Shown piece by piece: positions 19,171-36,044 of a stretch of 64,000 nucleotides of DNA. The translations under genes were made by a program, and so were the position numbers. The DNA comes from Escherichia phage ECO07P2, in sequence record OP172785. The stretch is one strand, 5' to 3'. The notes beneath the pieces are model-generated. The model was given only the letters and a program-made list of their open reading frames with translations. It did not search any database and had not been told where the DNA came from. Within the stretch, counting starts at the first letter, position 1. Every line of letters begins with the position of its first letter.

Positions 19171-19240
19171 TTCTGTATCAGTAGTTGATAGTTGTATAGT
19201 ACCATAATCAACTACTGATGTATATAGTTTTATGAAAAAA
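19171..19240 (-). promoter_or_regulatory. early promoter/leader cassette variant
   Basis: Contains gttgatagttgtatagtacca leader repeat and upstream A/T tract. Confidence 0.45.
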
Positions 19241-30965: not shown

Positions 30966-31551
30966 CTTTTACTTTAGGCTGTTCTTCAAACGGTAATTCA
31001 TATCCACATATTACAATTTTGTGATCGATACCAAAATACACAGAAGCAATATTATTAATATTATTTTCAGTGAAATCTAAATCAACATCAATATCTTTTT
31101 GACTAACGCTCAAAGGATAATTAATACGAATAATTCGATTATCTTTAACAAAGATTCCACCGACATACTCTGTGCTGCGTTTAAAGTTTACACGTTTCCT
31201 AAATGAAAAATATTCAGGTTCTTTATGGGCTCGACTCATAGGGCTTAAAGTGTATTCCGAATATGAAATATCAAATCCTACACCTTCAATATGAGCCAAA
31301 GTATCATGATTAAACCAATTATAATCGTATGCCAAATCCATTAAATTGTAATATGTGAAAGGCACCGGATTAACATCATATGTTGTACCTTTAAAATCTG
31401 CCCAGGCAACGATTTCGTTATCTTTAACAATTACAAAAATTGTGCCAATAAGATATCCACGGTTATTTTCATTAGGTGTTATATTATAACATTGTGCATC
31501 AGGAAATTTACCGTATTTAAACGGTGGATTTTTGTGCATATAATAAATCAT
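30919..31551 (-). CDS. hypothetical protein (210 aa; 61.2 position)
   Basis: Track ORF ending SIDDQIFNAFMNKG. Confidence 0.6.
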   Translation of the reverse strand: MIYYMHKNPPFKYGKFPDAQCYNITPNENNRGYLIGTIFVIVKDNEIVAWADFKGTTYDVNPVPFTYYNLMDLAYDYNWFNHDTLAHIEGVGFDISYSEYTLSPMSRAHKEPEYFSFRKRVNFKRSTEYVGGIFVKDNRIIRINYPLSVSQKDIDVDLDFTENNINNIASVYFGIDHKIVICGYELPFEEQPKVKVSIDDQIFNAFMNKG

Positions 31552-31552
31552 A

Positions 31553-31846
31553 TTATTCGCCTGTGATTTCGGTTACGATATTTTTATTATTAAAGTTTTT
31601 ATCGCAATACAGAACATAATTATACTGCATTACACCACCAGACTTAAGTTGTTTTTGCACTTCAGCTTTCATTTCAGGACGATCACGCTCAACGATATTC
31701 ATAATATCGGCTTCAATCTGAGTTTCAACCTCAGTCTGATCTGCAGTCATAGACCACTCACACAAATCTTTGTCATAACCCGCCATAGCAGGCTGAGCAG
31801 CGCAAGAAGATAAAGCAAAAATTGCAGCAAAGATAAATTTTTTCAT
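31553..31846 (-). CDS. sp: Spackle (Sp) periplasmic protein
   Basis: 97-aa ORF with signal peptide MKKFIFAAIFALSSCAAQPAMA; size and sequence as I recall T4 Sp. Confidence 0.7.
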   Translation of the reverse strand: MKKFIFAAIFALSSCAAQPAMAGYDKDLCEWSMTADQTEVETQIEADIMNIVERDRPEMKAEVQKQLKSGGVMQYNYVLYCDKNFNNKNIVTEITGE

Positions 31847-31949
31847 GATAATCTCCTCAGTAGTTTATGTTTATAGTATCTCAATTTTCAACAAAAGTAA
31901 ACACTAGTAGAAGCAAACAGACAAATTACAATAATTGGTGATTTCAGTT

Positions 31950-32141
31950 TCATTCTTCTCCTCCATGTTGATGAACATATTCTTTTTCAAGTCTAGAGCA
32001 CAAGTTTTCATATTCAACTAATAAAAATGAATCAAGTGCGTTATTTCTATGCTGACACCGTTCTTGTAAAGAATCCATCTCTGAACGTTGTTCTTGTGTT
32101 AATAATTGATAACCTGATACTTTAGACATTTTATTCTCCAT
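31950..32141 (-). CDS. hypothetical protein (63 aa)
   Basis: Track ORF. Confidence 0.45.
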   Translation of the reverse strand: MENKMSKVSGYQLLTQEQRSEMDSLQERCQHRNNALDSFLLVEYENLCSRLEKEYVHQHGGEE

Positions 32142-32193
32142 TTACTCGTTTGTTTTGATAGGTCTATAATAACATGTTTAAAACAAAAGTAAA

Positions 32194-32448
32194 CTATTTT
32201 ATTTCCTCAAGTTCGTTAATCAATAAAAGTTCTCTGACGCTAAAAACAAAGAAAAATGTGTTCCCATCAACCAGAGCATGACCGCTAATAGAACACCCTC
32301 TGCGGAATTTAGAAACTTCACAATCTAGAACTGTAAAGGGTTTTAATCCTATGACTTTAACTGTGCGTCTATTCAGTTCACAACCACTCGCGAATTTTTC
32401 CAAATCTTCTTCTGATTTAAACTGATATTCTCTATTAACTAGCATCAT
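32194..32448 (-). CDS. hypothetical protein (84 aa)
   Basis: Track ORF downstream of promoter 32478-32509. Confidence 0.5.
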   Translation of the reverse strand: MMLVNREYQFKSEEDLEKFASGCELNRRTVKVIGLKPFTVLDCEVSKFRRGCSISGHALVDGNTFFFVFSVRELLLINELEEIK

Positions 32449-32477
32449 TTTCTTTTCTCCGCGATTAGCTGATAGAA

Positions 32478-32509
32478 TTACTATAACACAACTCTATCAG
32501 CTTGTAAAC
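32478..32509 (-). promoter_or_regulatory. early promoter GTTTAC-18-TATAGT
   Basis: Minus strand GTTTACAAGCTGATAGAGTTGTGTTATAGTAAT. Confidence 0.5.
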
Positions 32510-32511
32510 TA

Positions 32512-32811
32512 CTATTTTAAAACTTCTGTATAATCACATGTTACAAACTGTTTCTCTAACTTGACGATTTTACGAAAGTATCTTTTGCATTGGCGAATCT
32601 GCCGCTTTGTAGGGCGCACAGCAAACTTAATAAATTCCACTCGACCAAATGGAGGGCTTTCTTCTGCTGGAATATCTAATACCAATTCCCACGTATCTGC
32701 GATAAGTGCTTTGAATTGAGTATTTTTCCTTACGTTATACGGAGTAGGTTTAAATAAAACAATATGCATATTATCCTCGGCAATCCACTTCGCATACTTT
32801 CTTGTCATCAA
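32512..32811 (-). CDS. hypothetical protein (61.4 position, ~98 aa)
   Basis: Track ORF; likely ATG one codon inside TTG start; overlaps dmd 3' end. Confidence 0.5.
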   Translation of the reverse strand: MMTRKYAKWIAEDNMHIVLFKPTPYNVRKNTQFKALIADTWELVLDIPAEESPPFGRVEFIKFAVRPTKRQIRQCKRYFRKIVKLEKQFVTCDYTEVLK

Positions 32812-32953
32812 TGAAAGCTTTAACTAGCGCTTTATTAACTTCAGCATATTGAGTAGTAGCCCATTGAACGTCATCTTTCATCATTGTGATTTCTTTAGTA
32901 AACATGCTTTCATTCTTAAACCACCCCATAAAAACTACCTTTACCAATTCCAT
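32771..32953 (-). CDS. dmd: Dmd (discriminator of mRNA degradation; antitoxin against RnlA/LsoA)
   Basis: 60-aa ORF MELVKVVFMGWFKNESMFTKEITMMKDDVQWATTQYAEV; matches my recollection of T4 Dmd, directly downstream of gene 41. Confidence 0.7.
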   Translation of the reverse strand: MELVKVVFMGWFKNESMFTKEITMMKDDVQWATTQYAEVNKALVKAFIDDKKVCEVDCRG

Positions 32954-32978
32954 AAAAATCTCCTCATTTAACCGACAA

Positions 32979-33011
32979 GACTACTATACCATAGTCTTGT
33001 CGGCTTGTAAA
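32979..33011 (-). promoter_or_regulatory. early promoter with 12-bp perfect inverted repeat spanning -10
   Basis: Minus strand GTTTACAAGCCGACAAGACTATGGTATAGTAGTCTTGTCGG; arms CCGACAAGACTA / TAGTCTTGTCGG. Confidence 0.55.
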
Positions 33012-34439
33012 CTAAAATTTTAATTCATTTGCCAAAGCATCTAACTGAGCTCGAGCGGATTCGTTTCTTTGATAGCGATTCTGTTCAGCCTGAATCTGCT
33101 GTGAACCTGCTACTTCGTTCACTTCAGTTGGAGTAGAATCTTGTTCAATTTCTACCCATTTCTGATTTCCTTTTTGAACACCCATCAAAAACTTATTCCA
33201 TTTATTCTTATCACCGTATCGTGATTTGATTTGCTTAATGAGTTGTTGTTCAGCAGCTGCTAACTCCTCAGTTTCAATGACCGCAAGCATAAAATCGGCT
33301 GTTGCTGGAAGACCGGCAGATTCTGCAATATCGCTCATGTTAACATCAGAAGAATCCCAAGCTTGCTTACCAACCTGTGCTGCAGTCCAAAGAACAGTTT
33401 CGGTTTCAACAGCCAGAGCACGCAATTCTTCTGCGATGGCTTTAACAGTTGTGTAACTATTTTCTGAGTAAACTCTGATGCGGCAAGATTTACAAATACC
33501 TAGATAGTCGACAATAATGATTGTTGGAACAAAATTCTTCTTGAGCTTTAATTCATTTAAAAGCGACCGAAATGTATTAGCGTCTGCTCCACCAGTAGGA
33601 TACTGTTTAACGATTAAACGACCGAGAGTAGATTTCTCACGCCATTTTTCCATTTTTCCTTTATACTCAGCGTAAGAAATATGCCCATCATCAATGTCAT
33701 CAAGAGAAACATCAAGCATATTAGCGTCAATACGCTTAGCACAGACTTCTTCTGCCATTTCCATGGAAATGTAAAGAACATTATGTCCGAGCTGCAAATA
33801 ATCTGCTGCCAATGAACATAGACCTAATGACTTACCAACGTTAACACCAGCCATTAAAACGTTCAGTGTTCCAGTCTCAGCTCCGCCTTTAGTAATTTTA
33901 TTTAGAATTTTGAGTTTAAATGGAACCTTACGAGCTTTATTCATATAAGATAGCCAACGTGCTTCGTAGTCATCCATCCAATCATGGCCAACGTAGCTAT
34001 CAAATGAAATTGATAATGCTTGGCGCATGATGTCAGGAATAGCACCTACATCTGGCATTTTCTTATTTCGTTTTTCTGGAGGAAGCTCAGCATTAGTTTG
34101 AATTTCAATTATTTTAGATGTGGCGTTAAACATCGCCCTTTGCTGAACGTATTTTTCTGTTTCTTTTACTAACCAGCTATGGTCTTCTGGAGAATCGGTT
34201 AGTTTCGAAATAAGTGTTTTTACACCAGAATATTCTGTTTCAGTAAATGAACTATTTTCTAATGCAACATTTAACGCATTAATAGATGGAACGCTATGGT
34301 ACTCATTGACATGAGATTTAATTAATTTGAATGTATTTTTAGCTGGACCACTTTCAAAATATTCTGAATCCATATATGGCCAAACTTTTGAAAAATAAGC
34401 TTGATCAAATATGAGATGAGAAAGAATAATTTCTACCAC
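33012..34439 (-). CDS. 41: replicative DNA helicase gp41 (DnaB family)
   Basis: 475-aa ORF MVEIILSHLIFDQAYFSKVWPYMDSEYFESGPAKNTF; Walker A GVNVGKS. Confidence 0.95.
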   Translation of the reverse strand: MVEIILSHLIFDQAYFSKVWPYMDSEYFESGPAKNTFKLIKSHVNEYHSVPSINALNVALENSSFTETEYSGVKTLISKLTDSPEDHSWLVKETEKYVQQRAMFNATSKIIEIQTNAELPPEKRNKKMPDVGAIPDIMRQALSISFDSYVGHDWMDDYEARWLSYMNKARKVPFKLKILNKITKGGAETGTLNVLMAGVNVGKSLGLCSLAADYLQLGHNVLYISMEMAEEVCAKRIDANMLDVSLDDIDDGHISYAEYKGKMEKWREKSTLGRLIVKQYPTGGADANTFRSLLNELKLKKNFVPTIIIVDYLGICKSCRIRVYSENSYTTVKAIAEELRALAVETETVLWTAAQVGKQAWDSSDVNMSDIAESAGLPATADFMLAVIETEELAAAEQQLIKQIKSRYGDKNKWNKFLMGVQKGNQKWVEIEQDSTPTEVNEVAGSQQIQAEQNRYQRNESARAQLDALANELKF

Positions 34440-34448
34440 ACTTACTCC

Positions 34449-34811
34449 TTAAAAGAATTTAAATTTTTTCTTTGACCTTTTATTAAATGCATCTTGTAGT
34501 TGCATTGTAATACATTTTTCTACATGAGGAGCTAACTCAGCTTTTCTTTCTTGGTCAAGAATAGCAAAGTCCATTACGACTTTTCCATCAACCCAATCTA
34601 ATTTTGTCACATACACAATGTGTGTAGAACCGTCTTCTAGTTTAATGACAATCTCCTGGATAACATTTTCCATAGCAGATTTAATTATCTTAAGAGATTC
34701 ATTAAAAAGACGTTCTTTTCTTTCTTCTTCCCCCTCCGAAGAGGGGGATTCATCGATAATTTCTAGATCTAAATCTAAATCATCTTTATTCATTAAATTC
34801 TTCCATATCAC
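34449..34811 (-). CDS. 40: gp40 head vertex assembly protein (probable)
   Basis: Track ORF of 120 aa between uvsX and 41 as in T4; start may be internal. Confidence 0.55.
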   Translation of the reverse strand: MIWKNLMNKDDLDLDLEIIDESPSSEGEEERKERLFNESLKIIKSAMENVIQEIVIKLEDGSTHIVYVTKLDWVDGKVVMDFAILDQERKAELAPHVEKCITMQLQDAFNKRSKKKFKFF

Positions 34812-35967
34812 TTAACTGGTCTAGGTCAGTTTCTAAATCAGCTGCTGATTTACTTTTACTTTCTGGAGATTTAAATTTTTCAACCTTTGAGTTAATCAAT
34901 TCGTCAACTTCAGCTTCAACAATTTCATTACTATCAATAGCACCTAACTGATAAGCGCGTTTAATAGCATCTCGGAATGGTTGATGCTTAAATAAAGGAC
35001 CCCAGAATGTAGTACAGTTGGTATCTTTTGCACGCCAAGATTTTTCTTCGCGAATCATCTCGCCAGTTTCTTCATCAAGAAATTCACGAGCATACCAACC
35101 GTTTTTAGGTTTTACTACAAATCCTAATTCAAGAGCCATATCTAACAATCCAGAATAAGGATCGATGCCACCGTCAAATTTAACATCAATGAAGAATTTA
35201 CTTTTTTCTTTAACGGTACGAGATTTTTCTACATTTAGAACAAATTGATACCCCTGAAGATCAGAACCATCTTTAATCTGGCGCTTACCGATAATGAATA
35301 CAGTATCAGCCGAATACATTACGCCTGTACCACCTGTCATCACGGTTTTACTAAACATCTCAATTGTTTCAATTGTATGGTTAACCGCAACACATGGAAT
35401 GTTTTTAATACTAAAATAAGGAGTAACAATACGGAATAATGACTTCAGCGATTTAGCACGAGTCATATCTGCCACAGATTTTTCATTCAAGGCATCTTCC
35501 GTTTCTTTCTTAGAAGCCATATTACCGATTGAGTCGATGAATACAATAACTTTTTCACCGCGCTCAATAGCTTCAAGCTGATTCACCATATCAATTTTCA
35601 GTTGTTCAACTGACTGGATTGGTGTATGAATTACTCGTTCCGGGTCAACTCCCATAGATCGCAAATAAGCTGGAGTGATACCAAATTCGCTATCATAGAA
35701 TAAACAAACCGCATCAGGATATTTGTTCAAATACGCCGCAACCATAGTCAAAGACATATTTGATTTAAAGTGTTTAGAAGGACCTGCAAAAATAGTTAAA
35801 CCAGACTGCATACCACCGTCAATCGCACCTGAAATAGCGATATTAAGCATTGGGATTTTTGTACGGATTACATCCTTTTCATTAAAGAATTTAGATGTAG
35901 TCAGTTCAGCAGTCATTTTAGAAGTGGAAGCTTTAATCAAACGGGATTTTAAATCTGCAATAGACAT
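34786..35967 (-). CDS. uvsX: UvsX recombinase (RecA-like)
   Basis: 393-aa ORF; Walker A GPSKHFKS; C-terminal SAADLETDLDQLSDMEEFNE as in T4 UvsX. Confidence 0.95.
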   Translation of the reverse strand: MSIADLKSRLIKASTSKMTAELTTSKFFNEKDVIRTKIPMLNIAISGAIDGGMQSGLTIFAGPSKHFKSNMSLTMVAAYLNKYPDAVCLFYDSEFGITPAYLRSMGVDPERVIHTPIQSVEQLKIDMVNQLEAIERGEKVIVFIDSIGNMASKKETEDALNEKSVADMTRAKSLKSLFRIVTPYFSIKNIPCVAVNHTIETIEMFSKTVMTGGTGVMYSADTVFIIGKRQIKDGSDLQGYQFVLNVEKSRTVKEKSKFFIDVKFDGGIDPYSGLLDMALELGFVVKPKNGWYAREFLDEETGEMIREEKSWRAKDTNCTTFWGPLFKHQPFRDAIKRAYQLGAIDSNEIVEAEVDELINSKVEKFKSPESKSKSAADLETDLDQLSDMEEFNE

Positions 35968-36044
35968 TCATTTTTTCCATAGGCATCATTATATTTTCCT
36001 CACTGGTTAAAGATAGAGTAATTATAACACAATAAATTTAGGCA

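Follow-up and report, generated by a model that had tools for sequence, protein, structure and literature searches.

An inverted repeat bracketing the -10 box of the dmd-tifA early promoter in a T4-like phage as a candidate RNA hairpin at the end of gene 41

The interval between gene 41 and dmd

The window analysed here, a stretch of 64,000 nucleotides from Escherichia phage ECO07P2 (sequence record OP172785), belongs to Tequatrovirus and is about 97% identical to T4. Around the palindrome considered below, a stretch of 601 nt finds matches in 533 phage records, with 99.5% identity to KFS-EC3 and 97.0% to T4T. The minus strand carries gene 41, dmd and tifA in that order, and the features of the interval between the first two genes are collected in Table 1. 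The product of the dmd ORF is 100% identical to T4 Dmd, and it matches the Pfam family PF17587 (Dmd) with an E-value of 1.6e-46. Together, dmd and tifA constitute an anti-defence operon, with dmd directed against RnlA/LsoA and tifA against ToxN, and according to Srikant et al. 2022 (PMC9391042) both genes are expressed from an early promoter of T4. The interval between genes 41 and 61 is variable between genera and, relative to T4, the window carries a two-ORF insertion bounded by promoters of the GTTTAC type.

Table 1. Features at the gene 41-dmd-tifA locus, in window coordinates
Feature	Coordinates	Strand	Basis and remarks
Gene 41, replicative helicase	33012..34439	(-)	ORF list; the homologous ORFs of T4 and its relatives carry the annotation gp41 helicase
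Gene 41 stop codon TAG	33012-33014	(-)	G33012 shared with the first base of GTTTAC
A/T-rich stretch AATTAAAATTTTA, UP-like	33013..33025	(-)	Upstream of -35; overlaps the last gene 41 codons
-35 region GTTTACA (TTTACA = 33006-33011)	33006..33012	(-)	Promoter scan; invariant in 17/17 aligned relatives
Full predicted RNA hairpin (read-through transcripts)	32970..33005	(-)	RNA folding
Arm 1 (CCGACAAGACTA)	32992..33003	(-)	Repeat search; promoter spacer, about -27..-16
Loop TGGTATAG	32984..32991	(-)	About -15..-8; carries the extended -10 TG and the first five -10 bases
Extended -10 TG	32990-32991	(-)	Promoter scan; TGgTATAGT
-10 hexamer TATAGT	32983..32988	(-)	Promoter scan; invariant in relatives except sb4 (TATACT)
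Arm 2 (TAGTCTTGTCGG)	32972..32983	(-)	Repeat search; about -7..+5, includes the discriminator and the initial bases of the transcript
Putative transcription start	32976	(-)	G seven bases past -10; standard sigma70 geometry
dmd Shine-Dalgarno GAGGAG	32960-32965	(-)	6 nt downstream of arm 2, 6 nt before the ATG (32951-32953)
dmd, 60 aa, antitoxin against RnlA/LsoA	32771..32953	(-)	BLASTP 60/60 and Pfam
tifA (61.4)	32512..32769	(-)	ORF; Pfam DUF7279; operon with dmd per PMC9391042

In regard to the promoter of the operon, the proposal made in the initial annotation agrees with the outcome of the promoter scan, which returned TTTACA-17-TATAGT with a TGn extension, identical to the sigma70 consensus at 10 of 12 positions. 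T4 early promoters are of the UP/-35/TGn/-10 type (Hinton 2010, PMC2988021), and the A/T-rich stretch preceding the -35 region could here represent the UP element. The homologous 30 bp carries the annotation "promoter" in phage Lutter. Transcription of dmd-tifA probably starts at the G indicated in Table 1, as judged from the distance to the -10 hexamer. A MotA-box-like TGCTT (33035-33039) is also present upstream of a TAAAAT sequence (33017-33022), but the two are too closely spaced to make up a middle promoter, and none is listed between P61 and PuvsX among the published ones (Hinton 2010, PMC2988021).

The minus-strand string GTTTAC-AAG-CCGACAAGACTA-TGGTATAG-TAGTCTTGTCGG, on which attention had been drawn initially, is present in the window exactly as quoted, and a repeat search recovers it as a 12-bp perfect inverted repeat, with arms 100% complementary and separated by 8 nt. 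The position first assigned to it, 32979-33011, was right as to location but too short, as the full element extends over 32972-33012, and the last 7 nt of arm 2 together with the G of GTTTAC had been clipped. The arms do bracket the -10 hexamer, TATAGT having five of its bases in the loop and one as the first base of arm 2. The dmd palindrome is confirmed as a non-random feature. Two loci in the window have perfect 12-mer inverted repeats with loops of 3-20 nt, compared with a mean of 0.14 in 100 first-order Markov simulations; the other locus (19177-19219) shows the same design, built around a TACTAT -10.

The expectation that the element could form a hairpin is borne out by structure prediction. 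As RNA, the 40-nt core folds with -23.9 kcal/mol (z = -8.7, with a range of -6.7 to -8.7 for the hairpin) into a 15-bp helix between 33005-32991 and 32984-32970, closed by the 6-nt loop GGUAUA, in which the 12 perfect base pairs are extended and G·U pairs are included. The corresponding DNA fold reaches -12.5 kcal/mol (z = -8.3). The hairpin begins 9 nt past the stop codon of gene 41, and 5 of the 12 pairs in the stem are G-C. A U-tract is absent on the 3' side of the stem, where the tail reads GGUUAAAUGAGG, and a search of the whole window against Rfam 15 at the gathering threshold returned no matches.

The position of the two arms relative to the start site has a direct consequence for the RNA species that could carry this structure. 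With one arm within the promoter spacer and the other across the start, transcripts initiated at the dmd promoter would be devoid of arm 1 and would contain only 5 nt of arm 2, so the hairpin would be possible only in RNA reading through from gene 41. The Shine-Dalgarno sequence of dmd lies outside the helix, which ends at 32970-32972.

Conservation of the stem-loop among relatives and across genera

Since a scan of IMG/VR with Dmd yielded only 5 close loci, the diversity of the element was drawn from GenBank phage records. An alignment of 17 sequences, 15 of them distinct, included T4, T2, T6, RB14 and RB27, and variants were counted on a 55-nt core in about 495 related phage records. The perfect palindrome in the form found in the window is shared by 2 of these about 495 records, and the T4 form, with one T·G, by 21. 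The majority form, present in 342 of 495 records (69%), has two wobbles, T·G at pair 2 and G·T at pair 3. Another perfect 12-bp repeat occurs in sb4, with A-T in place of G-C at pair 3. When the element is read as the sense strand, 99.4% of the pair cells across the 15 distinct orthologues hold standard pairs: at pair 2, C-G alternates with U·G, pair 3 occurs as G-C, G·U and A-U, and pairs 4, 6 and 10 have one G·U variant each. T6 alone has a mismatch, an A·C at mid-stem, and its fold stands at -14.7 kcal/mol.

The effect of these substitutions depends on the strand and on the nucleic acid considered. In the majority form, sense RNA keeps the 15-bp helix with a stability of -18.9 kcal/mol, whereas the antisense RNA is left with a 9-bp helix of -10.1 kcal/mol, and each of the DNA strands with a 9-bp hairpin of -6.7 kcal/mol and an 8-nt loop. 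The DNA palindrome has in this way come down to 9 contiguous Watson-Crick pairs in 69% of relatives, and the two transitions involved pair, as G·U, only in the sense RNA. Comparison with other phages, as proposed in the initial annotation, thus finds the hairpin kept in the relatives, and kept as an RNA helix.

The hairpin of the dmd promoter is accompanied by others within the window. Sites following the pattern GTTTAC-N17-19-TAnnnT were collected, and hairpin z-scores were calculated against shuffles in which the -10 was kept, with a cut-off of z < -2. Such GTTTAC-type sites number 21, and 8 of them fold below the cut-off; at six (20825, 33012, 10540, 32509, 19820 and 38739), at least 11 bp bracket the -10. 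In each of the eight significant hairpins, stability is greater for the sense than for the antisense fold. In a strand-symmetric helix search, the seven hairpins with compact loops contained 9 G·T compared to 1 A·C, and all helices scoring at least 9 contained 8 G·T compared to 2 A·C. The sequences of the arms are unrelated among the hairpin-promoters, and equivalent hairpins built from unrelated arms therefore fit a structural role of the RNA, and not a sequence-specific binding protein common to them.

Two considerations bear on how far the sense-strand signal can be taken. Support from formal covariation is weak: in a column-shuffle control, the observed pairing score was reached in 372 of 500 shuffles; the commonest state is already a wobble and no pair has changed on both sides relative to it. 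Because the majority state is a wobble from the outset, this control is uninformative, and the weight was placed instead on the asymmetry between sense and antisense. Strand-biased C-to-T mutation of the non-template strand could in turn account for part of the G·T excess relative to A·C, a bias by which the two A-to-G changes are left unexplained. Given the shuffle result and this possible strand bias, we take the sense-strand evidence as supportive, short of proof, of a hairpin whose conservation concerns the sense-strand RNA helix and not the DNA palindrome.

In a wider comparison, most of the genera examined have a stem-loop where the helicase gene ends, conserved in its position and not in its sequence. 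A stable stem-loop located just past the gene 41 stop codon, or inside the promoter that follows, was found in 6 of 8 other genera, in three different arrangements. In Mosigvirus and Kanagawavirus, gene 41 is followed by a G+C-rich hairpin with a GTTTAC promoter behind it; Karamvirus and Winklervirus have the hairpin within the promoter spacer; Krischvirus and Biquartavirus have only the hairpin. No hairpin was found past the gene 41 stop codon in Gelderlandvirus and Jiaodavirus. In Tequatrovirus, the stem-loop at the end of gene 41 is fused with the promoter.

Relation to known combinations of promoters and hairpins

Several systems in which promoters and stem-loops are combined have been described, and the dmd element can be compared with each of them. 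The closest are the promoter-early stem-loops (PeSLs), defined in phages RB49 and phi1 as strong sigma70-like early promoters combined with stem-loops (Arbiol et al. 2010, PMC2839356). In these, the usual location of the stem-loop is the stretch separating -35 from -10, or one overlapping the -10, and the stems include G·T pairs (PMC2839356). The concept was subsequently extended to the PST/T4 pair, with the consensus TTTACW-N17-TAYWAT and a link to insertions and deletions (Comeau et al. 2014, PMC4122927). All testable defining features are found at the dmd locus, and by its sequence the element appears to be a cassette of the PeSL type. The promoter is there, with a -10 one position off TAYWAT, and so is a stem-loop, in the form of a helix that brackets the -10. 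The intergenic layout corresponds as well, the TAG overlapping GTTTAC, AATTAAAATTTTA lying upstream and GAGGAG-N6-ATG downstream. Repetition is likewise observed, with many copies per genome located mainly among small accessory genes, and the association with insertions and deletions between relatives is common to cassettes of the dmd type. The legend describing the PST/T4 elements in 2014 places the stem-loops "just upstream of" the promoter, whereas the dmd hairpin brackets the -10, and the dmd element is therefore closer to the 2010 description from RB49/phi1.

The PeSL work also provides experimental information on function. One PeSL stem-loop cut the expression of a downstream lacZ as much as rrnB T1 did, terminator activity having been assayed in the source paper for PeSL211/210 of RB49/phi1 only (PMC2839356). 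The assayed stem-loops are rich in polyG/polyC, while the dmd stem has the more modest G-C content given above and is devoid of a U-tract. The same two features separate the dmd element from Rho-independent terminators, which it resembles in having a stable hairpin a few nucleotides past a stop codon. Canonical intrinsic termination is unlikely here, because there is no U-tract and because a terminator scan of 31000-36000 made no call at this position.

A second group comprises the T4 genes e, soc, 49 and I-TevI, whose promoters lie inside RNA hairpins (Uzan and Miller 2010, PMC3014915). As would be the case at dmd, long upstream transcripts fold, and RNA from the internal promoter is devoid of the 5' arm; the putative dmd start site is located inside arm 2. 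On the other hand, the promoters in that group are late or middle and the 3' arm sequesters the Shine-Dalgarno sequence or the AUG, while the dmd promoter is early and its Shine-Dalgarno sequence stays 6 nt outside the helix. Pairing of the Shine-Dalgarno sequence as in the e/soc/49/I-TevI group, absent at dmd, is present in the sister elements 20825, 10540, 38739 and 25786.

Bacterial promoter-coupled terminators (Fletcher et al. 2026, bioRxiv 10.64898/2026.08.19.745784) likewise consist of one intergenic sequence between tandem genes that combines the end of the upstream unit with the start of the downstream one, and here too the palindrome overlaps promoter elements. Their stem-loop is positioned at -35 and followed by a T-tract before the -10, with termination about 10 bp upstream of the start, whereas the stem of the dmd element extends from -27 to +5, brackets the -10 and is not followed by a T-tract. 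Finally, operators of the LexA type have in common with the dmd element a dyad symmetry centred on the -10, and differ from it in that the dmd half-site does not recur, its symmetry is broken in most relatives, and the arms are different at each promoter of the class.

Possible roles of the element and their implications

We consider it rather probable that the element, fused to the early promoter of dmd-tifA, acts at the RNA level as an insulator and as a structure at the 3' end of gene 41 transcripts. According to this model, a single 41-bp stretch would perform two jobs, as a promoter in the form of DNA and as a hairpin in the form of RNA. The double-stranded DNA would be the strong sigma70 early promoter of dmd-tifA. 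In transcripts of uvsX-40-41 that run beyond the gene 41 stop codon, the promoter spacer and the first transcribed bases would pair into a hairpin of 12-15 bp. RNA from the dmd promoter would begin inside arm 2 and stay unstructured, so that the hairpin would act on read-through RNA only. There, it may attenuate or pause read-through, or block 3'-exonucleases, or both, and as an exonuclease barrier it would define a stable 3' end of the gene 41 message. As a consequence, dmd-tifA would depend on its own early promoter and be insulated from delayed-early and middle transcription. The anatomy, stability, sense-strand helix conservation and class membership of the element are as described above; attenuation or 3'-end protection is suggested by analogy with the experiments on PeSLs of RB49/phi1 and with hairpins at the same position in other genera.

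Alternatively, the hairpin could discriminate between transcripts according to their origin at the level of translation, with the read-through RNA structured in the region of ribosome binding and poorly translated, and the early-promoter RNA open. Synthesis of Dmd and TifA would in that case be limited to the early-promoter RNA, and transcription would not be stopped. The geometry of a promoter inside a hairpin is the same as in T4 e, soc, 49 and I-TevI, for which such a paradigm is documented (PMC3014915), and the 3' arm contains the Shine-Dalgarno sequence GGAG(G) in sister elements 20825, 10540, 38739, 25786 and 19820. Moreover, a fold of a 101-nt window around the dmd element includes an outer A/U helix that pairs part of GAGGAG. 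This outer helix was rejected as an explanation for dmd, as it is not conserved, since the U required for pairing is a G in T4 and most relatives (GAGAUUGUU). In dmd itself, the Shine-Dalgarno sequence and the ATG are found 6 nt and 18 nt outside the conserved helix, respectively. Initiation is usually little affected by a hairpin whose end lies at -19 from the AUG, and we regard control of dmd translation in this manner as unlikely.

It could also be proposed that the hairpin has no function of its own and is a by-product, or a recombination handle, of early-promoter cassettes that spread through the genome, the repeat being kept through the constraint on the promoter. Such a view is in line with the sequence TAGTTTACAAGC(C/T)GA, which the dmd promoter has in common with the next promoter downstream (32509), with the promoters that bound the two-ORF insertion relative to T4, and with Klebsiella phage MY02, in which the same promoter and spacer exist without the 3' arm. 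PeSLs have been proposed as sites of recombination (PMC2839356, PMC4122927), and amplifications of dmd-tifA arise by recombination at microhomologies flanking the locus (PMC9391042). However, arm 2 lies outside the promoter hexamers and is still complementary to arm 1 in nearly all relatives, in wobble or compensatory states, and the 8 of 21 promoter sites mentioned above fold far better than shuffles keeping the -10. A recombination role is, besides, compatible with a role of the RNA. We therefore give an absence of function of its own only a small chance.

The initial annotation had suggested an operator through which dmd expression is coupled to a DNA-binding factor. A dimeric phage or host protein would in that case occlude the -10 and repress dmd transcription or set its timing, in favour of which stands the perfect 12-bp dyad centred on the -10 in ECO07P2. 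The mechanism by which T4 early promoters are shut off is still unknown (Hinton 2010, PMC2988021), and palindromes of terminators are known to double as sites of transcription factors, such as LexA at yobI/ruvA (Fletcher et al. 2026 preprint). The proposal is poorly supported. Allowing up to 2 mismatches, CCGACAAGACTA has 3 matches in the window, the two arms included, compared to 2.99 expected. More than 99% of relatives have an imperfect dyad, with changes that are asymmetric between the half-sites and favour RNA wobble over DNA symmetry, and the equivalent hairpins of other early promoters have unrelated arms. An operator at this site is thus highly improbable.

Just as improbable is the supercoiling switch specific to dmd that was put forward along with the operator, in which negative supercoiling would extrude the repeat as a cruciform, expose the -10 in a single-stranded loop and tie the promoter to topology: both DNA strands of ECO07P2 can indeed form a 12-13-bp hairpin (-12.5 kcal/mol) with an A/T-rich centre, but the loop is long, the 9-bp DNA hairpin of the majority form is marginal for extrusion, T4 endonuclease VII cuts cruciforms, the wobble asymmetry is meaningless for a cruciform, and equivalent hairpins exist at other promoters.

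The insulator and 3'-end structure proposed for dmd-tifA could be one case of a broader arrangement, in which about a third of T4-type early promoters, built inside RNA hairpins, would form a genome-wide "transcript-origin" code of open leaders and closed hairpins. We put this forward tentatively and consider it doubtful at present. If it were true, leaders initiated at these promoters would be open and translatable, and sensitive to RegB where GGAG is exposed, while delayed-early and middle RNA arriving from upstream would be a closed hairpin, with read-through attenuated and the upstream 3' end protected. Wherever the Shine-Dalgarno sequence is in the arm, the downstream gene would be silenced and shielded from RegB. 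Expression of the dmd-tifA anti-toxin functions would be confined to the first minutes of infection, and the lysozyme-type paradigm, which concerns a few late genes, would come to include the early regulon. The steep and so far unexplained fall in early gene expression could be due in part to such a code.

The element is near-identical to the corresponding T4 sequence, and its kind, the PeSL, has already been published. What the proposed function would add is that one sequence controlling an anti-defence operon has two uses, serving as a promoter while DNA and as a hairpin once transcribed. Cassettes of this repeated type also mark places in the "anti-toxin island" where genes have been gained and lost. 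In annotation, palindromes of this sort that lie over the -10 box in T4-like genomes are not to be taken for operators. For phage engineering and the interpretation of transcriptomes, the proposed function predicts that helicase transcripts end, or are stabilised, at the element, and that dmd-tifA is insulated from middle-mode read-through. The dmd element also represents a well-defined case for asking what role hairpins devoid of a U-tract have, whether in termination, 3' protection or translational masking.

A promoter-hairpin downstream of dmd-tifA and an adjacent gene gain

The first promoter downstream of the dmd promoter (positions 32467-32509, minus strand) has the sequence GTTTACAAGCTGATAGAGTTGTGTTATAGTAATTCTATCAGCT and follows the same design, with the -10 hexamer TATAGT bracketed by a 13-bp helix containing one G·T pair, and this hairpin folds at -18.0 kcal/mol with a z-score of -5.5. 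Because TAGTTTACAAGC(C/T)GA is common to this promoter and to the dmd promoter, the dmd-tifA pair is flanked by direct repeats. The dmd-tifA locus is known to amplify via microhomology recombination (Srikant et al. 2022, PMC9391042).

In comparison with T4, Lutter, RB27 and others, the region between tifA (61.4) and sp holds about 600 bp of additional sequence (31900-32520, minus strand) that carries two additional small ORFs (table below), each preceded by an early-type GTTTAC promoter, at 32509 and 32194 (minus strand), respectively. The T4-type sp promoter is shifted to 31902. The insertion marks a gain of genes within the "anti-toxin island" and has promoters resembling those of the promoter-early stem-loop (PeSL) cassettes at its bounds.

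ORFs inserted between tifA and sp, and dmd of the Mosigvirus Shf125875
Feature	Location	Strand	Remark
Inserted ORF, 84 aa	32194-32448	minus	matches phrog_2980 "goF mRNA metabolism modulator", E 5e-20
Inserted ORF, 63 aa	31950-32141	minus	matches phrog_37915
Annotated dmd, Shf125875	L006 2639-2842		overlaps preceding ORF 2319-2768

Promoter, hairpin and dmd in other genera

In Shigella phage Shf125875, a Mosigvirus (comparison record L006, 2319-2842), dmd is separated from gene 41 by two other ORFs, and a promoter directly upstream of dmd is absent, so the promoter-hairpin is not linked to dmd itself. A promoter of Klebsiella phage MY02, from the unrelated genus Marfavirus (L018, 401-432), reads GTTTACAAGCTGATAAGACTATGGTATAGT, with the -35, spacer and -10 almost as in the dmd promoter and with no complementary 3' arm. 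The MY02 promoter suggests that the promoter module moves, or converges, independently of the hairpin.

Hairpins at other promoters of the window

Besides the dmd element, the sole perfect inverted repeat of at least 12 bp in the window is located at 19177-19219 (minus strand), upstream of an ORF starting at about 19150. Its 13-bp arms, ATCAGTAGTTGAT and ATCAACTACTGAT, are separated by a 17-nt loop and bracket the -10 sequence TGGTACTAT; the -35 is degenerate (TATACA). A 22-nt core, TGGTACTATACAACTATCAACT, which takes in the -10 together with the first bases to be transcribed, is common to five minus-strand promoters (10540, 38739, 11265, 7400 and 19219); where these form a hairpin, its 5' arm, which lies in the spacer, is the complement of the conserved downstream segment and of the Shine-Dalgarno sequence (SD). 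A related segment, CCTATCAACTACTGGAG, is found with a matching 5' arm in Shf125875 (L006, 2264-2312). A small hairpin, CCACAAGGA(C)TGTGG, lies between the -35 and -10 of three promoters of the window (61025, 15545 and 11265, minus strand). In Serratia phage X20 (Winklervirus; L025, ~765-795), the promoter that directly follows gene 41 carries the same hairpin.

At five minus-strand promoters (20825, 10540, 38739, 25786 and 19820) the 3' arm of the hairpin contains the SD GGAG(G), which would therefore be masked in read-through RNA arriving from the upstream gene. RegB requires an unpaired GGAG (PMC3014915), and for this reason the read-through RNA of these five promoters would resist RegB. Masking of this kind may partly account for the escape of early-gene transcripts made in the middle mode from RegB.
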